Source: a virus (Duplodnaviria > Heunggongvirae > Uroviricota > Caudoviricetes). From it: a stretch of 17,112 bases of DNA. The stretch is from the IMG/VR virus record IMGVR_UViG_2541047699_000018, one strand, 5' to 3'. Within the stretch, counting starts at the first letter, position 1. Each line of letters begins with the position of its first letter. Both the position numbers and the translations under genes were made by a program. The notes under the pieces are model-generated. The model was not told the origin of the DNA, searched no databases, and saw only the letters and a program-made list of their open reading frames with translations. Below, piece after piece: positions 1 to 8,624 of the stretch.

Positions 1-714
1 TCAATAATCAAGCCCTTGCCTGGATACATATCTGTCTGGCGGGAAGCCATAATAGCGGTGAAATACAGAAATAAAGTAGGACCTGCTTGAATAACCGCAT
101 TTTTCTGCTATAGCCTGTCCATATCCATGCCGGGAACATAACATATTTACAGCAACACGCATCCGCTCTTCCAGCAACAAGCGACTGAACATGCCCCCTT
201 CATTTTTCAGTTTTGTCTTTAACAAACTCTCACTCATATGCAACTGTAGAGCAATCGCACCAAGCGTCCAGCTTGCTGATATATCTGTCTGAATTATCGC
301 CCTGACTTTGGCACTTATGCTGGATAAACATCCACTTAAAAACAATGACATCCGTTCATCTGTTTCAAACAGAGACAGGCAGGCCATCATAAGAAACATA
401 TCCGTGGCCTCTCCGGAAAATCCCTGGCTGGTAATTAAAGCCGCAGCCAACGCAGGATTGTTGGGTTCCAGCAACAGGTAAAGCGGAATGTCAGTCAGAC
501 GAGTCCTCGTCAGCTTATGCTGACTTTCCAGATATTGACTTACGACGGATTCGCTTATATCGACAATTTTAACTTTGCCATAATGCATAAGGAAAAGCTC
601 CCTGATGCATTTGGTGGCCAGAACAACTGAGCCTGGCTTAAGTGACAACGTATCCTTTTCAAGAAAAATATTAATTGGGGAGCAAACCATGATAACTGAA
701 CAGACAACAGCCAT
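1..714 (-). CDS. AraC-family transcriptional regulator, AppY/YdeO/GadX-like subgroup
   Basis: Complete 237-aa ORF. C-terminal AraC-type HTH region (ESLLKTKLKNEGGMFSRLLLEERM ... IAEKCGYSSRSYFISVFHRYYGFPP) and N-terminus MAVVCSVIMVCSP resemble my recollection of AppY/YdeO. Stop codon sits at positions 1-3. Confidence 0.85.
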   Translation of the reverse strand: MAVVCSVIMVCSPINIFLEKDTLSLKPGSVVLATKCIRELFLMHYGKVKIVDISESVVSQYLESQHKLTRTRLTDIPLYLLLEPNNPALAAALITSQGFSGEATDMFLMMACLSLFETDERMSLFLSGCLSSISAKVRAIIQTDISASWTLGAIALQLHMSESLLKTKLKNEGGMFSRLLLEERMRVAVNMLCSRHGYGQAIAEKCGYSSRSYFISVFHRYYGFPPDRYVSRQGLDY

Positions 715-835
715 TATAATTTTACTTTCATTAGCAATTGGTTAGCTCAATTATAGCCCCAAAAGGTAAATTATCATCAACACATAAGCAAAGGACTGAC
801 AGGTGTCGCCCCCCCACCAGCCGCCCATTCACCAC

Positions 836-862
836 AAATAAAAAGCCTTCAGGACTGAAGGC
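836..862 (-). terminator. Intrinsic terminator for leftward transcription
   Basis: Minus strand reads gccttca-gtcc-tgaaggc (7-bp GC-containing stem, 4-nt loop) followed by TTTTTATTTG; overlaps the stop codon of the 65-aa ORF. Confidence 0.5.
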
Positions 863-1046
863 GTCTGTAACAACCGCACTGATAGTCTGCCAGACCCGCC
901 ATAACCAGCTGGGTCAGTATTAACTGGCAGCGTTCGCGTGAAAGGTAAGTATTCTGCGCAATCTCCCCGACTGTCGCCGGTTCGGTGACGCTTAATTCAT
1001 TAAACACCACTCTGGCGGTTTCTGTCATATCCTGCTGTTTCAGCAT
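849..1046 (-). CDS. Small winged-helix DNA-binding protein, possibly PapI/FaeA-like
   Basis: 65-aa ORF with HTH-like segment TVGEIAQNTYLSRERCQLILTQLVMAGLA. Bracketed by terminators on both sides. Only a weak SD (aaggg) upstream. Confidence 0.45.
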   Translation of the reverse strand: MLKQQDMTETARVVFNELSVTEPATVGEIAQNTYLSRERCQLILTQLVMAGLADYQCGCYRRLQS

Positions 1047-1168
1047 GTCTTTTTACCCTTTTCGGTTAACGTGACACACCAATAACTCTTGTCGAAAAAG
1101 CCAGCAAGCTGAAAGACAGGTATTCACCGCCACCAGCACGTTTACTGTACTGGACCGATTTCAGCCAT

Positions 1169-1193
1169 AAAAAAACCCGCTCGCGGCGGGTTT
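1169..1193 (-). terminator. Intrinsic terminator downstream of the Q gene
   Basis: cccgc-tcgcg-gcggg hairpin at 1176-1190; on the minus strand it is followed by a run of 7 T (plus-strand A-run 1169-1175), about 70-95 bp past the Q stop. Confidence 0.6.
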
Positions 1194-1261
1194 AAGCTGT
1201 GTGGCGAAGTAACCACTCTTAACATACTGACATACTTTTTGCGGACCGCACTAATCATTTT

Positions 1262-1657
1262 TTACTTTTTTAGCAGCCAGTCGTCCATCTCCAGTCTTAC
1301 CCCCAGCACAGACAAACATCCGTCAATAAACCCTTCGGCTATCTGCATCTCAATTCGTATTGCTTTTTCGCTTTTCTTTCTCGTCCTGGCTATCTGTCTT
1401 TTTGATATTCGCAACAAATAATGAGCAATGAGAAGCGAATACTCCTCAGGTTTTTTCTGCTTCAGACGAGCAAGACAGTTTTCAATGATAAGTCCGTCAT
1501 CATCGCAGCAGGCCGGACGTGGTTTAGTGGCAGATGGTAAAAGTCCTTTGAATCCGGCAGCGATCGGAGAATAGTCCACCCCGGTGTTACCACTTGCAGC
1601 CCATGCCCCCCAGCGTTCAAGAACCATCTGAATATCACGCATCAACTTTCTCCACAA
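1262..1657 (-). CDS. Late-gene antiterminator Q (phage 82 / QuuD-like family)
   Basis: N-terminus MRDIQMVLERWGAWAA, CCDDD motif and C-terminal RLEMD match my recollection of QuuD-type Q proteins. True start may be the internal ATG at 1642. Start overlaps the upstream gene stop. Confidence 0.8.
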   Translation of the reverse strand: MWRKLMRDIQMVLERWGAWAASGNTGVDYSPIAAGFKGLLPSATKPRPACCDDDGLIIENCLARLKQKKPEEYSLLIAHYLLRISKRQIARTRKKSEKAIRIEMQIAEGFIDGCLSVLGVRLEMDDWLLKK

Positions 1658-1659
1658 AA

Positions 1660-2655
1660 TCAGGACAGCACACCAATCGCCAGCGCGCGATCGATAAAAC
1701 GAAATATCAGCTCCAGTTGGGAACCATACTTCTCTTCAAATGCCACGGTATCCGCATGCAGTTCGTCATGGTGTTTTCTGCACAAAGGCAACACAAAAAG
1801 GTCATGCGCTTTTGTACCCATTCCACCCTGACCATGACCAATCAGGTGATGAGGATCGTCGGCTGGCTTACCACAACATGCACACGGCTGCGTCTTAACC
1901 CAGCGCGTGTACTTTTCATTAACCCAGCGGCGACGTTTTGGGCGTAACATAAAAGACTCCGGCGACTCCGGATCCACTTTCAGCGCCAGCACCTTTTTCG
2001 CCTTATCCTGGATGATGCTGGTGGCAGGAACCGAAGGCACAAGGTCACTTTCCCGGGTGACAGACGGCACAACAGGCTTCGGTAATCTCAGTGCCTTACG
2101 GGCTGCACTTTCCGGTAAGGCATCCGCCAGGTCATTACGAATCAGCCACCAGCACAGTTCCGGCATTGTCACAACGTGACTGTCATCAAAACCAAGATCA
2201 CGGCGCACAACAGACAACACCCAGCGGGCACAGTTATCCGTTGCCATTGCTTCCAGCCGTTCCGTGAACTGGTCACGGAGAAGATTGTCACAGTGCCAGC
2301 ACAGACGGATTGCGCCTGGCGCGTGCCGCATTGTGGTCATGTTCTCGCTGTGCCAGTCGGAATGAGGCCACTGACAGCCTTTTTCACGAAGTAACCAGCT
2401 CTCAAGGCATTCCACGCCACCAGCACGACGGATCACCGCCTCATGGCGGAACACGGCCCGAACGGCAGGATCATCCGCCAGCGGTTGTGATGCTGCCGGA
2501 ACGGCACCACTGGCAAAAGATGAATAACGTTCCGGCTCAGGCTCCAGCAGGACACGCCCCTGCATAAACAGGGGCATCAGCTCTGAACCGGGTCTGAACA
2601 AGACGATCCCCATACGCGGGGCAATTTCAGGGGTCAGCAGTGCTCTCACGGTCAC
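1660..2655 (-). CDS. DUF968-like protein with HNH-like Cys/His cluster (YdfU-like)
   Basis: 331-aa ORF. C-terminal motif CACCGKPADDPHHLIGHGQGGMGTKAHDLFVLPLCRKHHDELH. GTG start at 2655 has a poor SD, so the true start is uncertain. Confidence 0.65.
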   Translation of the reverse strand: MTVRALLTPEIAPRMGIVLFRPGSELMPLFMQGRVLLEPEPERYSSFASGAVPAASQPLADDPAVRAVFRHEAVIRRAGGVECLESWLLREKGCQWPHSDWHSENMTTMRHAPGAIRLCWHCDNLLRDQFTERLEAMATDNCARWVLSVVRRDLGFDDSHVVTMPELCWWLIRNDLADALPESAARKALRLPKPVVPSVTRESDLVPSVPATSIIQDKAKKVLALKVDPESPESFMLRPKRRRWVNEKYTRWVKTQPCACCGKPADDPHHLIGHGQGGMGTKAHDLFVLPLCRKHHDELHADTVAFEEKYGSQLELIFRFIDRALAIGVLS

Positions 2656-2701
2656 CTCAGCGAACGGTATTGCATGAACGCAGGAGAAAAAAATTCAGCC
2701 A

Positions 2702-2959
2702 TCACGCAGTAAACTCCTTCACCAGCGTTTCAAACTGGCTTACCTGTCCTTCCAGTTCCGCCACGCAATCCACCAGCTCATCCACCGCCTTTTGTGTGCG
2801 GTGTTTTGCCTGCAGCAGATCACTAAGCGCCGGAGTAAGCTGCTTGCGGAGCGTATCTTTTTTCACGCTCGTTTTTTCCATCTGTTCAGCACAACGAAGC
2901 ATCTCCTGCGCCTGCCGACGAAGTTGTTCCGGTGAAACAGTGATTGTTCTGTTGTTCAA
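2702..2959 (-). CDS. Hypothetical phage protein, coiled-coil-like
   Basis: 85-aa ORF whose start overlaps the DnaB-like stop (4-bp overlap), within the coupled leftward operon. Confidence 0.5.
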   Translation of the reverse strand: MNNRTITVSPEQLRRQAQEMLRCAEQMEKTSVKKDTLRKQLTPALSDLLQAKHRTQKAVDELVDCVAELEGQVSQFETLVKEFTA

Positions 2960-4356
2960 AATAAACGCTCCGTTTTACTGCCCGACATGCGGTTATTGCT
3001 GTATCTGCGCGGATTGCCCGGCGTCATGGGTGTGGAAAGAACCCGGGCACTCTCCTGGTCCACAGGCAGAAAATGTCCGTTATGAAAACGCCGGTAAATG
3101 GTCCCGAGCGTGCCATTACGCTGTTTCGTGATGTTGATTTCTGCTATGCCTCTGGCCTGAGTTTCCGGGTTGTATACCTCATCCCTGTAAAGCATCAGAA
3201 TGATGTCGGCATCCGCCTCGATTTCCCCGGAGTTTTTCAGGTCCGAGTTCATTGGGCGTTTATTGGGTCTGGATTCCACGCCGCGGGAGAGCTGGCTCAG
3301 AGCAATCAGCGGAAAACCGCCGGATTTTGCCAGGCTTTTAAGTCCCTTTGAGATTTCCCCCACCGCAAGGTCGTGACGCCCCGTGCTGCGGGTTTTAATC
3401 AGGCCGAGGTAATCGACCACCACCAGCGCCGTTTCCGGGTGTTTCATCCGGTGGTGCTTCGTGGTTGCACATATCTCATCAATGGTCAGGTTTGCCTGGT
3501 CCACCATCCAGATATTACGCCCCGTCATTCGTCCCACGCCCTGCGAGAAACGCGCCCAGTCTTCATCTTCAAAACGGGCAACAGACTTAAGACGGGATAC
3601 CGGCATTCCACCGGCAGCAGACACCATACGTTCACCAATCTGGATGTTCGCCATCTCCATGGTGAACAGAAGCACGCCATGCCCCTGCTCAGTCACCTTG
3701 TCGATGATGTCCAGCGCAAGTTCGGTTTTCCCCATCGAAGGACGGGCGGCAATGAATACCAGGTCTCCGGGCTCCATACCGCCCGTTTTTGCGTCCAGTT
3801 CATCAATACCGGTCATCAGCGCCCTGGATTTCTCCAGTCCCTGATTGCGGCATTCAACACGGTCGACCACTTCCGGAAGGACATCATCAATGTGAACCGG
3901 CTGAATGACGCCCTTTCCGGTCGACAGTGAGGCCATCATGTTCTGCGCATCCTTCAGGGCATCCTCGGCTGCTTCACAGGTATACGCATCACGTAAATTC
4001 TGTAATGCTTCAGTCAGTGTTTTTTCTGCATCACGCAGTGCGGCATTGCGCCGCAACGCTGCGACATAGTGCTCCAGTGAAGACTTCACCCAGGTTTTGC
4101 GTCCGGTGTCGGTAATCACCGGGGCAAGTTCCGGCATCTCATTGCACAGCAGTACGGGGTCAATGACGCCGGATATGCGAGCCTGTCTGCAAATCCCCGC
4201 GTAAATATCCCGGTACTGACGCACAAAAAATACATCCGCCGGAAGTGTGGCCAGAATATCCATCACTTCCGGATCGGCCCCACGCAGAAAAAACGCACCG
4301 ATGACAGCGCCTTCCAGGTCATCGTTACGCCATGCCGGGGTGTTCTGGCTGGTCAT
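2956..4356 (-). CDS. Replicative DNA helicase, DnaB-like
   Basis: 466-aa ORF with Walker A (ARPSMGKTELALD), DnaB-type motifs (VVVDYLGLI, SQLSRGVESR) and the expected N-terminal domain. Confidence 0.9.
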   Translation of the reverse strand: MTSQNTPAWRNDDLEGAVIGAFFLRGADPEVMDILATLPADVFFVRQYRDIYAGICRQARISGVIDPVLLCNEMPELAPVITDTGRKTWVKSSLEHYVAALRRNAALRDAEKTLTEALQNLRDAYTCEAAEDALKDAQNMMASLSTGKGVIQPVHIDDVLPEVVDRVECRNQGLEKSRALMTGIDELDAKTGGMEPGDLVFIAARPSMGKTELALDIIDKVTEQGHGVLLFTMEMANIQIGERMVSAAGGMPVSRLKSVARFEDEDWARFSQGVGRMTGRNIWMVDQANLTIDEICATTKHHRMKHPETALVVVDYLGLIKTRSTGRHDLAVGEISKGLKSLAKSGGFPLIALSQLSRGVESRPNKRPMNSDLKNSGEIEADADIILMLYRDEVYNPETQARGIAEINITKQRNGTLGTIYRRFHNGHFLPVDQESARVLSTPMTPGNPRRYSNNRMSGSKTERLF

Positions 4357-5261
4357 GCGGCAACACCTCCGATACGAGAACGGTAGCTGGGCCAGTTAAA
4401 CGACAACCAGTTGCGCCCGCCATCGGTGATCCTGTCGGCAATCCGGGGACTGATGAACGCCCACAATTCTTCCGGTGAAAGGTTGCTGATCAGGATAGTT
4501 GGCAAAATACCCTCATACCGGGCATTGATAATTTCCTGCAAAATGGCCATTTCAGCCGCACTGCCAAACTGAACGCCGACTTCGTCGACAATCAGCAAAT
4601 CCAGTGACGCATAATGCTCAATGACGTCATCCGCTGTTTTTTCACTGTCATTCCGCCAGCAGTTTTTCACAGCCCGGGTAAGGCGCATCACGTCGGTGAT
4701 CTCCACACTGGCCAGATAGTTACGGATGATGTGTTTTGCCATTGATACCGCCAGATGATTTTTCCCGGTACCGCAACTGCCGGTCATAACAAGACTGGTA
4801 CCGTTCTCCAGCATATCTGGCCAGTTCTCCGCATAGCGGCGACAGGCCGCAAGATTTCTGGCTGCGTCAGGATTAACCTCCAGATAATTATCAAACTCGC
4901 AGTCCCGAAAACGCAGAGCAATTCCGGCGTTATCAGTCAGTTCTTCCGCCTTGAGGGACGACAGTTCCATGGTCAAATCACTGGCCTCAGCGATCAAGCA
5001 GTCAGGGCAGCATGAAATTTTTTCTCTGTCCTCGCCATTACGATCGATCCACACCAGTATATGCGTACGATATTTACCGTGTTTTTCGCAATATCCGCGA
5101 CCTTCACGCATCAGGCAGGAACGATAAGGCCATGGCTTTTCGCCCTTCTGAGCAAATGCAATCTCTGCCCGTAACTCATCCATTTCTGCCCGTAACTCAT
5201 CCATTCGCGCCTGTAGTCTTGTTTGTTTCTCACGTTGGTCAATCGTCATCATCGCTGTCAC
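4353..5261 (-). CDS. DnaC/IstB-like helicase loader ATPase
   Basis: 302-aa ORF with Walker A GSCGTGKNHLA and Walker B LLIVDEVG. N-terminal Cys cluster (C...C...CC..C). Start overlaps nothing upstream but its stop region overlaps the DnaB-like start. Confidence 0.85.
   Translation of the reverse strand: MTAMMTIDQREKQTRLQARMDELRAEMDELRAEIAFAQKGEKPWPYRSCLMREGRGYCEKHGKYRTHILVWIDRNGEDREKISCCPDCLIAEASDLTMELSSLKAEELTDNAGIALRFRDCEFDNYLEVNPDAARNLAACRRYAENWPDMLENGTSLVMTGSCGTGKNHLAVSMAKHIIRNYLASVEITDVMRLTRAVKNCWRNDSEKTADDVIEHYASLDLLIVDEVGVQFGSAAEMAILQEIINARYEGILPTILISNLSPEELWAFISPRIADRITDGGRNWLSFNWPSYRSRIGGVAA
5164..5205. repeat. Perfect 21-bp tandem duplication inside the DnaC-like gene
   Basis: tctgcccgtaactcatccatt occurs twice in tandem (5164-5184 and 5185-5205); encodes the in-frame repeat MDELRAE-MDELRAE. 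Confidence 0.9.
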
Positions 5262-5262
5262 C

Positions 5263-6255
5263 TCAGAATGTCAATTTGTTACTGGATTTACCGAATTTGT
5301 CAGACATGGCTCCCAGGCCAGCCAGGACATCGACCTGTCGCTGTCGCCCACCTCCGTGAGCGGCTGGCTGTTGCCAGTAATCTTCGAAGTGACGATCGGG
5401 TCCAAAGAACGTCGCAGCCTGCTTCACGAACTGTGTGCCGGTATTTCCTGTAGCACGTACCCAGGCGGCATACCGCTTCACGCCATCAAGCATGGTCTCC
5501 GGTTTTATTCCCTCCCTGATACGGGCTTTCCAGGCTTTGAAGGCTGCTGACTTGGAATTGCCACCAGCACGTTTGGGATATTCCTGCCAGGCCTGTTCAA
5601 ATTCCGGTGAATATTCCTGTCGGGCAGAACGCGCTGGCGCAGACGCGTCAGCGGATGCATCAATAGTGTTTTTAGTCTCCGTTGTAATCTCTGTAGTAAT
5701 CTCTGTATTTGTATCAACATTCGGCGTATCCCCTGTTCCGTTATGACGTCGGGGGGTGTTCCGTTTTAACGTAATAGCTGTATCGCTGATTGCATTATTG
5801 CTGTTACTTTCTGGCGAAACAGAAGAAGGTGTGGTGATGGCCGCAATTGCCTGTGGGTTGATCCCGACAAACAAAATATTGCTGCATTTCACCCCATCGA
5901 GCATTTCCACCGTGCGTAAATCCAGAGTAATAAACCCTGCATCGCGCAGACGCTTCAGCGCATCTGCGGTTTCCCTTTTCCCGAAACCAAACTGCTCAGC
6001 AAACGCCTGGTAGCTTCTTTGCAGTTTGTCGCCCTGAAAACGCTTGCGATATCCCAACAACGCTCCGGTGTGCTCATCCCTGACCTCTGTCGGGCGGTAC
6101 CAGTAAACGATCTCTGAAAGCAGAGCGATAGCCGTCGCATCCGGACGCCCACTGGGTAGTCGAATATATTTCCACCAGTTCGCAGGTGTAACATTGCCGG
6201 AAATATTAATTTGACCAATAGCCATAACTTCCGGTGTGGGGGCGTAACGGCTCAT
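5263..6255 (-). CDS. Phage replication initiator / replisome organiser (O-like)
   Basis: 330-aa ORF. C-terminal region (EFEQAWQEYPKRAGGNSKSAAFKAWKARI ... FEDYW) fits the conserved phage replication-protein C-terminus as I recall it. Directly upstream of the DnaC-like and DnaB-like genes. Confidence 0.7.
   Translation of the reverse strand: MSRYAPTPEVMAIGQINISGNVTPANWWKYIRLPSGRPDATAIALLSEIVYWYRPTEVRDEHTGALLGYRKRFQGDKLQRSYQAFAEQFGFGKRETADALKRLRDAGFITLDLRTVEMLDGVKCSNILFVGINPQAIAAITTPSSVSPESNSNNAISDTAITLKRNTPRRHNGTGDTPNVDTNTEITTEITTETKNTIDASADASAPARSARQEYSPEFEQAWQEYPKRAGGNSKSAAFKAWKARIREGIKPETMLDGVKRYAAWVRATGNTGTQFVKQAATFFGPDRHFEDYWQQPAAHGGGRQRQVDVLAGLGAMSDKFGKSSNKLTF
5684..5707. repeat. Perfect 12-bp tandem duplication in the initiator linker
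   Basis: gtaatctctgta twice in tandem (5684-5695 and 5696-5707); encodes the TEITTEITTE linker in a locally AT-rich stretch. Confidence 0.85.
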
Positions 6256-6551
6256 ACAACCTCCTTCCGCGGCATGAGAATTGTGTAGCCACGCGCAGGT
6301 TGTAGTCTGGCTTTTGCATCAATAGTAAGCGTTGCAATTTTTCGGATATGAAGATAACCAGCTCTTTCCAGTGCCAGGGTTTCCCTGAATATCGCTTGCT
6401 TAGAACAACAGCAGAAATCAGCAAGCACCTGATGATCAATAACTCTCTCGCCTTCACCGTCTGAAGAACCCGACATCAAAACACGCAACATAATTAGGCG
6501 CTGAATCGGGTTATCGAAAGCACATCCGCACACAAACTGAAAACAGTTCAC
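6252..6551 (-). CDS. Hypothetical protein, possible winged-helix DNA-binding
   Basis: 99-aa ORF; 4-bp overlaps with both neighbours. Confidence 0.5.
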   Translation of the reverse strand: MNCFQFVCGCAFDNPIQRLIMLRVLMSGSSDGEGERVIDHQVLADFCCCSKQAIFRETLALERAGYLHIRKIATLTIDAKARLQPARGYTILMPRKEVV

Positions 6552-6772
6552 GCCACACCTCCCAGACGCTTAAACATTTTTCCAGACAGAAATACCGCCA
6601 GAGGGTAACTGATGGTGTAGCTACGCCCCTGTAGTTCGCACACGACTTTCTGGCTTTCAGCGTTGACTAGGCAAACCCGCAGAACGTGACCGTTGCTGGT
6701 GGCGAACCACTGCCCCACACGGGGGCAACGGTTGTATCGGTGATACAGGGAATTAACGATGTGGCGGATCAT
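6548..6772 (-). CDS. Hypothetical protein
   Basis: 74-aa ORF translationally coupled on both sides. Confidence 0.45.
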   Translation of the reverse strand: MIRHIVNSLYHRYNRCPRVGQWFATSNGHVLRVCLVNAESQKVVCELQGRSYTISYPLAVFLSGKMFKRLGGVA

Positions 6773-6963
6773 GGACGCACCTCCACCGTAGTTACGTATT
6801 TAACCGGGCTACCTTTCATTGAGATGGTTTCACACATCTCTGCCGCTTTCAGTTCCGCTGTTTTTCTGGATTTATAGCGACGGTGCCAGACAGATACATC
6901 CGTGCGAACTGATACATCGTTTCTGTATTCCGTAGTGGAGATGATGATTTCGTAACTAATCAT
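6769..6963 (-). CDS. Hypothetical protein
   Basis: 64-aa ORF translationally coupled on both sides. Confidence 0.45.
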   Translation of the reverse strand: MISYEIIISTTEYRNDVSVRTDVSVWHRRYKSRKTAELKAAEMCETISMKGSPVKYVTTVEVRP

Positions 6964-7511
6964 GGGCGAACCTCCTTGTCAGAACCATTCAGCCTGGAAT
7001 CAACAAGTGCAGCGCCAAAAACAGCATCACCAACACGGTCGTACAGTTTGCTAGCCAGCGGAGATTCAACGGCCTTAAGCATTGGATAAAGCTGGCTTGT
7101 CCAGATTTGATGGATTTCACGCAAATGCAGGTATACGCCTCTGGCGTTTCGTGCGACAGCTGACATATCAACCGCGTCAGCACCAGATAAATTCTTCTCC
7201 ATCTGGTTAAAGGCGTTGATGTATGCCTCTTTGAACCGGGCTGCACGTTTGCCAGTAAAGCCCATAGCAAGGAACGCGAAGCCATCGCGGGTGATTTGAT
7301 AGCAAGGTAGTTTGCGGCCTGTGCAATCGGTGTAATCACTGGGCTGAAAATTCAGCTCAGTGAATTCAACAGAGCACTCAAGCGTCTGGATTTTTTGAAT
7401 AACGTTTTTGTGCTGCTTGCAGAAATATTCGGCAACGACCAAAGAAGAGGTAACAGCCTTCCCATGGATAACATCAATTTTAGGGTGAGTTTGGGTAGGG
7501 GTGGTTGCCAT
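6960..7511 (-). CDS. Phage regulatory protein, Rha family
   Basis: Rha signature KAVTSSLVVAEYFCKQHKNVIQKIQTL and DGFAFLAMGFTGKRAARFKEAYINAFNQME. Start chosen at ATG 7511 (SD gagga 8 nt upstream); the ORF is open to 7808 but that start has no SD. Confidence 0.7.
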   Translation of the reverse strand: MATTPTQTHPKIDVIHGKAVTSSLVVAEYFCKQHKNVIQKIQTLECSVEFTELNFQPSDYTDCTGRKLPCYQITRDGFAFLAMGFTGKRAARFKEAYINAFNQMEKNLSGADAVDMSAVARNARGVYLHLREIHQIWTSQLYPMLKAVESPLASKLYDRVGDAVFGAALVDSRLNGSDKEVRP

Positions 7512-7522
7512 AGTGACATCCT

Positions 7523-7728
7523 CATGTGCGAATTTTGAAAACTCACCACATGGGACGCCAATCACAGAGGTGGTGAGACGTACAGGGTTGGCGTAACCGG
7601 TCGCACATGACCCCGGCGCATCTTTCGATGCCCCTGCACGCCCCACCATAATTTGGATGTGAGGAAACGTGCGCAAAAAAACCGCTGAAGCGCGGTTATG
7701 CGCATGTGCGAATTTCAGGACGCCAATC
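7523..7728. repeat. Direct repeats catgtgcgaattt ... ggacgccaatc (two copies)
   Basis: Copy A at 7523-7563 (with a 17-bp insert) overlaps the Rha start/SD region; copy B at 7703-7728 is contiguous. Confidence 0.6.
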
Positions 7729-7893
7729 CCGGCACCCGCTTTATAAGGTGCGGAGACAGTGTAACGTCCCGAAATTGCAGAATCAATATTTGGTCTTGAA
7801 ATGATCATATAGCTGCTGATATCTTTAGAACTGTTCTTGGATGTTTCGGAGCCGTTTTATGCGAAACAGCTCCCCGTTATTGATGTTGAGTGA

Positions 7894-7917
7894 GCCGGGT
7901 TACTCCCGGCTTTTTTT
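7894..7917 (+). terminator. Intrinsic terminator oriented for the plus strand
   Basis: gccggg-ttact-cccggc followed by TTTTTTT on the plus strand, overlapping the stop of the minus-strand Rha-like gene. Confidence 0.5.
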
Positions 7918-8624
7918 CACCGCTGCCAACCAATAACCTGAAATAACCCCATTTTCGGGTGATACCAGCGAGTCCCTCGCGGTTCTGCTTCCTCCATAAC
8001 CCGATAAAAAGCAGCCATAAACGGTTCCACAGCAACAATTGCGCGACGTGACAACAATCCGTCCGGCGTCATGAACTCATGGGTGTCTGTAGGAATCTGA
8101 TAGGCGTTCACCAGATTGCGGCATTTATCATCTGACAAACCGGTTTTTGCTTTCAGTTGGCGATATCCGGCATAGCCCTCACGAATAGTGCCCTTTTTAA
8201 TTTGCTCGACTGTTTCAGCAACGTGGCTGACTTTTTCTTCCACCTGAGTGATCCGTTTCTGCTGACGAACTGCTTCAAGAGCCATCGCGGCAACCATTTC
8301 GATTTCGCTCATTGGCTTACGGATCTGTTCTTCCAGTTCGCGCCAGCGATCTACCAGGCGAGCAGTGAATTCAGGACAGAGCTGTGCGACGACAATGATG
8401 CTGTCGCGCTTACCTTGTTCTCCTTCAAACAGGTAATGCTCATATTGAACTTTAAAACCTAAGTTATTGATTCTTTCGGAAACCTCAATTTGAGGAGACC
8501 GGACAACGCCACCTTTGGCTAATGTTTCAATAGTGCGTTTCACATTGTCATGACGTTTACCCACCAGCTCTGCGATCTCAACGCTGGTCATGGATGCTTT
8601 GCCGTTAAAAATTGCGGTGTTCAT
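7917..8624 (-). CDS. Rha-family-like phage regulatory protein
   Basis: 235-aa ORF. N-terminal motif TSVEIAELVGKRHDNVKRTIETL. Strong SD (aggaga) before ATG 8624. Confidence 0.7.
   Translation of the reverse strand: MNTAIFNGKASMTSVEIAELVGKRHDNVKRTIETLAKGGVVRSPQIEVSERINNLGFKVQYEHYLFEGEQGKRDSIIVVAQLCPEFTARLVDRWRELEEQIRKPMSEIEMVAAMALEAVRQQKRITQVEEKVSHVAETVEQIKKGTIREGYAGYRQLKAKTGLSDDKCRNLVNAYQIPTDTHEFMTPDGLLSRRAIVAVEPFMAAFYRVMEEAEPRGTRWYHPKMGLFQVIGWQR

Follow-up and report, generated by a model that had tools for sequence, protein, structure and literature searches.

Why is the antiterminator gene Q of a lambdoid phage followed by a terminator and two regulator-type genes where late genes would be expected? 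This question is raised by the left end of IMG/VR record IMGVR_UViG_2541047699_000018, a stretch of 17,112 nucleotides (nt) from a tailed phage (Caudoviricetes). It was analyzed as a whole and is called the window here; coordinates refer to it, and features lie on the minus strand unless stated otherwise. The original prediction, made from the sequence alone, held that a hairpin at 1176-1190 was too close to the Q stop codon for a functional late promoter and leader, and proposed a prophage remnant whose late region had been deleted or lay beyond the left edge. Q, the hairpin, a small open reading frame (ORF), a second terminator and an AraC-family gene were all confirmed on the minus strand at or near the positions given to them, the hairpin being the G+C core of a stem at 1193-1173. 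Their interpretation changed. With a probability of about 0.85, a normal lambdoid late operon begins in this left end, governed by a Q of the phage-21 family and carrying two cargo genes. This arrangement is ordinary and already described. Only the class-specific palindromic candidate Q sites, which keep a fixed spacing from an invariant element, may be new.

A short, terminated leader RNA would be the sole product of the late promoter in a lysogen. Upon induction, Q would join RNA polymerase at a cassette downstream of its own gene and take the polymerase past both terminators. The late transcript would then pass through a 65-amino-acid (aa) ORF and its terminator, the AraC-family gene, tRNAs of the ileZ-argN-argO type, further cargo, and the lysis and structural genes. 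The AraC-family regulator, which is of the PsrB type, would be expressed from the silent prophage through a promoter-like site of its own and would act on host genes. From comparison with related loci and known systems, we infer that Q binds the palindrome, and likewise the exact transcription start, the promoter activities and the targets in this host.

The longest Q ORF spans 1262-1657 and has a TTG start; the ATG used in RefSeq relatives gives 1262-1642 and a protein of 126 aa. This protein matched the Pfam family PF06530 (Phage_antitermQ) with an E value of 1.6e-52 and 176.8 bits (cut-off 26). It also matched the Q21 chains of PDB entries 6P18 and 6JNX (E 7.5e-8), with 33% identity to Q21 over 79 aa, and PHROG 79, annotated as "anti-termination protein Q-like". 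By these matches, the window Q belongs to the phage-21 family (PF06530).

The spacing between Q and the first terminator was compared with phage 21 and Gifsy-1. In the window, the stem at 1193-1173 has 8 pairs (5 G-C) and a loop of 5, and is followed by TTTTTTT at 1175-1169; this T-run ends 93 nt past the Q stop codon. In the curated phage 21 record OL657228, the -35 of the late promoter PR' begins 7 nt past the Q stop, the spacer is filled by two Q-binding subsites of 8 base pairs (bp), and transcription starts 42 nt past the stop, with the pause element TAAGCTG at +2. The phage 21 T-run ends at 87 nt and the annotated terminator at 91 nt. Gifsy-1, with its phage 82-type Q, has a -35 that shares bases with the Q stop codon, and its IsrK leader of 77 nt extends to about 109 nt past that codon (PMC4825925). 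With 93 nt compared to the 87 to 91 nt of phage 21, the hairpin spacing in the window is typical of compact late cassettes, and the claim that the hairpin lies too close to Q does not hold. The expectation behind that claim came from lambda and 933W-type phages. Lambda 6S RNA is 194 nt long. In 933W-type phages, the predicted leader is 258 nt, and a constitutive PR' with a short terminated leader RNA is a general feature of such late promoters (PMC7547250). Because the Gifsy-1 Q is of the phage 82 type, IsrK is an analogue and not a homologue. Rfam matches to isrK (18.3 bits; gathering score, 50) and Trp_leader (21.6 bits) were both rejected, being far below the gathering score and driven by the terminator.

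Copies of the late-control cassette were taken from 80 IMG/VR loci encoding relatives of the window Q and from further loci found via the AraC-family gene; conservation was counted over 53 distinct copies. Their common architecture 3' of Q consists of an A-rich stretch, a palindrome, a variable A/T-rich spacer of 18-19 nt, TGTTAAGAGTGGT(T/C)AC, a short hairpin, and a G+C hairpin with a T-run. In the window, the palindrome TGCGGTCCGCA lies at 1250-1240 and TGTTAAGAGTGGT(T/C)AC at 1224-1209; the full pattern matched once in the window and not at all in 200 shuffled sequences. All 53 copies have TGTTAAGAGTGGT followed by a terminator. TGn+TAAGAG, which can be read as an extended -10, was found in 100% of them, AAGAGT with the key A2/T6 in 98%, and a second hexamer of the form xAxxxT, 8 nt upstream of TAAGAGT, in 100%. 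The TAAGAGT element resembles the phage 21 pause element. Depending on which -10 is read, the predicted leader is about 45-55 nt long. A 5-bp hairpin right after TAAGAGT was predicted in most variants despite differing sequence (GUGGU/GCCAC, GUUAC/GUGAC, GUGGU/GUCAC). It is followed by a conserved GCUUA(A/U) that could pair with UAAG, and the two may form a conserved leader RNA structure.

The position of the cassette relative to Q varies. In the window phage and its close relatives, it begins about 12 nt past the Q stop codon and TAAGAGT lies 40 nt past it, while in a group with 142-aa Q proteins the cassette overlaps the end of Q. About 40 other IMG/VR loci contain 0.6-3 kb of extra genes between Q and the cassette, which stays on the late side. 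Shigella phage SfIV, the Shiga toxin (Stx) 2e phage phiP27 and the Sakai prophage Sp4 show the same separation. In all of these, Q has a different terminator behind it, and the terminator described above accompanies the cassette on the late side; the SfIV holin gene, for example, has leader and terminator about 150 nt upstream, at 2.5 kb from Q. Thus, the cassette fits a late promoter with a Q-utilization site and not a terminator of the Q gene. No second cassette copy was found in the 32-kb AR_0013 prophage locus.

Q proteins were classed by their recognition region, taken as the part that aligns with residues 76-108 of the window Q. Seven classes were distinguished, each with its own palindrome and with no exceptions. 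Proteins with ..EK.IRI..Q.AEGF (the window, SfIV and many others) go with GCGGTCCGC, and TGCGGTCCGCA is invariant in all copies linked to them. CSDGTIRKE.QTA.GF is paired with GCGTACGC, CSDGLIGKRLYKAEGI (Sakai Sp4, QuuD-like) with TTTACGTACGTAAA, CSDTCVGKRLQKAEGV with TTTACGATCGTAAA, RSDCWVGRLLQKAEG with the imperfect TTTACAATCGTAAA, ISLNQVVIRLQKAEGF with TGTTATAACA, and ISHTQILKRLQKAEGF (phiP27) with GGAATTCC. The palindrome center lies 23.0-23.5 nt before TAAGAGT in every class. The geometry of phage 21 is similar, with the center of its Q-binding element (QBE) 20.5 nt before the pause element. Because the palindrome changes with the class of the Q recognition helix, it is likely the Q-utilization site, that is, a candidate QBE, and the comparative evidence for this is good. 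The search of 1047-1261 for such a site, suggested in the original prediction, thus points to this palindrome as the candidate. The direct repeat AGTATGTC/AGTATGTT (1236-1221) was considered as a two-subsite QBE of the Q21 kind and rejected, since it is restricted to this spacer variant and does not track the Q class. The perfect repeat, AGTATGT-C-AGTATGT at 1222-1236 between the palindrome and TAAGAGT, occurs only in the cassette of this Q allele; locus L059, whose Q has the same recognition helix, lacks it. The repeat may be incidental.

No account of class-specific palindromic Q sites was found in the searchable, open-access literature, and a full-text search with the motif strings returned only unrelated primers. 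Tentatively, the short Q proteins of PF06530 (about 120-142 aa) might use an uncharacterized Q-utilization site: a class-specific palindrome centered 23 nt upstream of the invariant TGTTAAGAGTGGT, with at least seven interchangeable specificity classes and unlike the direct repeat of Q21. The constitutive leader of about 50 nt and the widespread 65-aa ORF, in many cases the first gene behind the terminator, could, as part of the same proposal, act as regulators in their own right, like StxS and IsrK.

The late genes themselves are placed by comparison beyond the window edge and are probably not lost. The two edges of the window coincide exactly with stop codons, that of the AraC-family gene at its start and that of the integrase gene at its end; its lack of late genes is therefore an edge effect. 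Contig L112 (IMG/VR 3300029851_000098) has one mismatch to window positions 1-7386 (99.99% identity) and extends 1393 nt past the left edge. The extension contains, in order, a 28-nt spacer, tRNA(CAT), tRNA-Arg(TCG), tRNA-Arg(TCT), a hairpin with a T-run, a TerB-family ORF and a small membrane ORF, after which the contig ends. Among 80 IMG/VR loci carrying the AraC-family gene, a tRNA starts about 28 nt past its stop codon in all 77 that have at least 150 nt downstream. Lysis-gene matches were found in 24 of the 25 loci with at least 7 kb downstream, and one locus carries stxAB. AR_0013 is the closest complete genome (98.6-99.5% identity); there, tRNAs, DUF6645, DUF1378, holin, lysozyme, spanin, terminase, portal, capsid and tail genes come after the AraC-family gene. 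S1-CAM-01-A has this layout with TerB/DUF3927 cargo, as does O157:H7 TB21-1, and the order Q, small ORF, AraC-family gene, tRNAs, cargo, lysis genes, terminase is common to AR_0013, S1-CAM-01-A, O157 TB21-1 and Sakai Sp4. PhiR49_2, deposited as a complete phage genome, has an identical Q and cassette, followed by tRNAs, holin, lysozyme and Rz. In every relative examined, lysis and structural genes were found left of the AraC-family gene, which has the position of a moron inserted into a late operon. Of the two fates proposed for the late region, the L112 continuation and the relatives thus indicate the one beyond the left edge.

Several further observations concern this downstream region. In L112, positions 7670-8430 encode a TerB-family (tellurite-resistance-like) protein of about 143 aa and a 54-aa hydrophobic DUF3927-like protein; prophages of O157:H7 and O145 also have this cargo, with the tRNAs on one side and an SASA/NanS-p esterase gene on the other. 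TTGATT-17-TATTAT, a promoter-like site (window 1-14; L112 7372-7414), extends over the final codons of the AraC-family gene, is directed into the tRNA array and stops about 7 nt short of the first tRNA. Its TATTAT -10 lies just outside the window and was seen in L112, and the site is conserved in nearly all 80 related loci. With this promoter-like site of its own, the tRNA array may be transcribed independently of Q. L149 (IMG/VR 2534681938_000025) has the holin-lysozyme-Rz block that comes after its AraC-tRNA module in the orientation opposite to the late operon, as does Sakai Sp4; both are rearranged relatives and probably defective.

The AraC-family gene encodes a 237-aa protein with a C-terminal AraC-type double helix-turn-helix (HTH) in Pfam (HTH_AraC, 50.3 bits, cut-off 26.6; HTH_18, 39.8 bits, cut-off 33.6). 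Its best NCBIfam model, YdeO, scored 108.5 bits; the equivalog cut-off is 348. Because this score is far below the cut-off, the protein is YdeO/AppY-like but not YdeO; the description as a complete regulator of the AppY/YdeO type therefore stands as to completeness and likeness, and identity with YdeO itself is not supported. The protein is identical to Sakai PsrA (ECs_1087) at 215 of 237 positions (91%) and to a second O157:H7 paralogue at 234 of 237 (99%), and this paralogue is itself 91% identical to PsrA. PsrB is described as the closest PsrA homologue, with 90% identity (PMC10877973). Based on the 99% identity to the second paralogue and the published PsrA/PsrB identity, we infer a psrB-type allele, the paralogue being matched by that published identity and not by a Z2104-labelled sequence. 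psrA is ECs_1087 in prophage Sp4 (PMC13502914), where the order is Q (ECs_1084), a CAAX protease gene, a small ORF (ECs_1086), psrA, and then ileZ, argN and argO. The window gene is in the same slot, with the same flanks.

PsrA and PsrB are reported to raise the expression of gadE/yhiF and hdeA, leading to more acid resistance, and to repress type III secretion, the latter indirectly (PMC10877973). A prophage sRNA, HnrS, has been linked to the expression of psrA. Deletion of psrA, or psrA/psrB supplied in trans, changes secretion in uninduced lysogens, in which psrA mRNA was also measured (PMC10877973, PMC13502914). The proposal that the prophage carries regulators acting on host genes agrees with these experiments on the PsrA/PsrB group (PMC10877973), and by analogy the window protein would act likewise. 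The consensus scan gave a score of 10/12 to a promoter-like site at 777-750 whose -10 is a perfect TATAAT. TATAAT (755-750) is unchanged in 19 of 19 distinct upstream variants of PsrA-type and PsrB-type loci, a conservation that fits expression of the AraC-family gene from a silent prophage. The gene is missing from PhiR49_2, phiP27 and many Stx2a phages that have the same flanks. With this variable presence, a promoter-like site of its own and a terminator upstream, it has the features of a moron, its expression being predicted. In one contig, L114 (IMG/VR 2695420847_000016, about 4756-7700), a PsrA-type copy (90%) with tRNAs is followed 1.9 kb on by a PsrB-type copy (100%) with its own tRNAs.

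The 65-aa ORF ends in the second terminator, which consists of a hairpin at 862-845 followed by TTTTTATTT (folding energy, -10.5 kcal/mol; z, -2.97). The original prediction of a small winged-helix gene between terminators is confirmed as to the ORF and its flanking terminators. Its fold is uncertain: the TrmB match was below threshold (18.3 bits; cut-off 25.6), several other winged-helix families matched the same residues weakly (E 0.04-0.1), among them MarR_2, DprA_WH and HTH_24 (E 0.04-0.09), and the AlphaFold single-sequence model had a predicted local distance difference test (pLDDT) score of 52. A match to FtsA in the PDB profile search was spurious, and this search returned nothing else of relevance. 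Loci with the ORF have Q genes of several unrelated types and may or may not carry the AraC-family gene, which is missing in phiP27 and many Stx2a phages. Its Sakai counterpart, ECs_1086, is 98% identical over 49 aligned aa. Because the consensus scan found no convincing sigma-70 promoter before it, the ORF may simply be the first late gene. The family has two allelic forms, about 50-55% identical, that share the N-terminus MLKQQDMTETA and the segment CQLILTQLV.AGLA; comparison of these mosaic sequences suggests that the shared segments are a functional core. Coordinates of the four genes at the left end and of the associated elements, all on the minus strand, are collected in Table 1.

Table 1. 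Genes and candidate control elements at the left end of the window
Feature	Position	Strand	Evidence
psrB-type AraC/XylS regulator gene (putative allele assignment), 237 aa, complete	1-714	minus	Pfam AraC HTH over cut-off; PsrA/PsrB identity
-35 hexamer TTGATT of promoter-like site for downstream tRNA array	6-11	minus	contig L112 and related loci
Promoter-like site for AraC-family gene, -10 TATAAT at 755-750	750-777	minus	consensus scan
Second intrinsic terminator, overlapping stop codon of 65-aa ORF	840-862	minus	consensus scan, folding
65-aa ORF, PHROG 331; possibly minimal winged helix	849-1046	minus	phrog_331, E 2e-37
Intrinsic terminator, tR' equivalent: 8-bp stem and 7 T	1169-1193	minus	consensus scan, folding
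Small leader hairpin GUGGU-N6-GCCAC	1201-1216	minus	predicted in window and most related leaders
Invariant TGTTAAGAGTGGT, extended -10-like or sigma-dependent-pause-like element of late promoter region	1212-1224	minus	
Candidate Q-binding palindrome TGCGGTCCGCA	1240-1250	minus	tracks Q recognition-region class
Q antiterminator gene, phage-21 family, 126 aa	1262-1642	minus	PF06530, Q21 structures, PHROG 79
DUF968/HNH gene	1660-2655	minus	

Could the locus nevertheless be a remnant that has lost its late promoter, leader and late genes by deletion, so that Q is left with a plain terminator and domesticated regulators behind it? The window is devoid of late genes, only about 70 nt separate the hairpin from the Q stop, and some relatives are rearranged, with insertion sequence (IS) elements or an inverted lysis block (Sakai Sp4, L149). 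The edge effect described above accounts for the first of these, and the spacing equals that of functional phage 21. The identical Q and cassette in the complete genome PhiR49_2, the continuation of near-identical L112 into the tRNA array, and the tRNAs and lysis and structural genes that follow the AraC-family gene in relatives all contradict a deletion. The early genes are also full length (integrase, CI-type repressor, Rha/Ash regulators, DnaC-like loader, DnaB helicase, DUF968 and Q); the integrase has its arm-binding and catalytic domains, the repressor is of the S24/HTH type, and the early region looks intact. We regard loss of the late region as highly improbable. It is also very unlikely that the hairpin at 1193-1169 merely ends an early Q transcript, with the late promoter and Q-utilization site elsewhere, e.g., after the AraC-family gene or before the lysis genes. 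That possibility draws on the ambiguous position of the transcription start and on the consensus scan, which found no canonical -35/-10 pair between 1261 and 1194. However, where genes are inserted, Q acquires another terminator and the cassette keeps to the late-gene side; moreover, the palindrome co-varies with the Q recognition region at a fixed spacing, and the AR_0013 locus has a single cassette copy. Finally, the small ORF and the AraC-family gene might be ordinary late genes that are made only after Q read-through and not independent cargo. Both lie in the late transcription unit on the same strand, and the small ORF has no convincing sigma-70 promoter, so that for this ORF alone such an explanation is quite possible. 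For the pair, it is unlikely: the AraC-family gene has its perfectly conserved TATAAT and a plausible -35, a terminator shields it from upstream, and psrA/psrB effects on secretion as well as psrA mRNA were found in uninduced lysogens (PMC10877973, PMC13502914).

A Q-controlled late operon with two cargo genes thus remains our reading, and the following points weigh against it or parts of it. No -35 is conserved across the 53 cassette copies, and the window has no good -35 hexamer. Scoring of -10/-35 matches over these copies was ambiguous, as two conserved -10-like elements leave no unique start, and the analogy to phage 21 would make TAAGAGT a pause element and not a -10. The candidate Q site is a palindrome, whereas Q21 binds a direct repeat. 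That the late region of this prophage itself is intact is deduced from relatives and from the near-identical 8.8-kb contig L112, which ends before any lysis gene, and the paralogue behind the psrB-type label was matched as described above.

Other features of the window were recorded. Terminator-like sites are frequent in 1-1800, with 5 found against 1.4 +/- 1.4 in shuffled sequences. Beside a cro-like gene are two adjoining Rha-domain regulator genes (6960-7808 and 7917-8624, minus strand), of which one has an Ash domain, and a second HTH_3 protein of 167 aa (9720-10223, plus strand) is encoded beside the S24-type CI repressor. With the Rha pair, the cro-like gene, the HTH_3 protein and the S24 repressor, the immunity region is unusually rich in regulators. 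Pfam gave no match for an 85-aa ORF at 2702-2959 (minus strand, between the DnaB helicase and DUF968 genes) or for a 330-aa ORF at 5263-6255 (minus strand, upstream of the DnaC-like loader). The best match among complete E. coli genomes was 98.6% over 2670 nt.

At least 80% of the 1.26-kb module was found in 725 of 5426 complete E. coli genomes (about 13%). PsrB-type regulators are therefore a common prophage route by which acid resistance is rewired, and in strains positive for LEE (the enterocyte effacement locus) this route also rewires type III secretion. Lambdoid prophages hold such host-directed regulators in the slot behind the late terminator, which is also the slot of the Shiga toxin genes. 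For genome scanning, a terminator 70-90 nt after a phage-21-type Q should be taken as a normal switch and not as a sign of decay. The co-variation of Q helix and palindrome gives testable predictions of Q specificity, i.e., which prophages can trans-activate the late genes of others, toxin genes included. The best-studied copies of this module have been analyzed since 2011.

Among known systems, the phage 21 cassette has the same Pfam Q family; it starts at the Q stop, its terminator ends about 90 nt on, and its leader is about 50 nt. It also has a TAAG-type -10-like element about 20-23 nt downstream of the Q-site center, and a tRNA array and lysis genes follow. In contrast to the 162-aa Q21, the window Q has 126 aa, and their identity is only 33% over the N-terminal 79 aa. 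The candidate Q site is a palindrome and not two direct 8-bp repeats, a consensus -35 is absent from the window cassette, and the terminator is followed by an insertion of about 1.1 kb of cargo. By analogy with lambda 6S RNA, StxS and Gifsy-1 IsrK, a short RNA ending at the terminator just after Q would be expected here too (PMC7547250, PMC4825925).

The cargo resembles PsrA (ECs_1087/Z1789) and PsrB (Z2104) both in sequence and in its position between the small ORF and ileZ-argN-argO; PatE is a more distant relative of these two. The Sakai Sp4 psrA locus differs in its QuuD-like Q (48% identity) and inserted CAAX-protease gene, and the O157 psrB phage in having a DUF1133-type protein at the Q position. 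The cargo slot of Stx phages (933W/Sp5, phiP27, phiSTEC1575-Stx2k) is similar, with the order Q, PR'/tR', tRNAs, stx, nanS-p, lysis genes. In phiSTEC1575-Stx2k, the small ORF and a 92%-identical AraC-family gene lie directly upstream of the tRNAs and stx2k, and in phiP27 the cassette and the small ORF lie upstream of stx2e. Unlike in these phages, no stx was seen in the near-identical contig, where the tRNAs are followed by TerB-family and DUF3927-like genes. Among the AraC-family acid-stress regulators AppY, YdeO and GadX, encoded by the chromosome and DLP12, the domain layout is the same and YdeO is the best model over the whole length; with 108.5 bits against 348, far below equivalog cut-offs, the window protein belongs to a separate subfamily, PHROG 1450.

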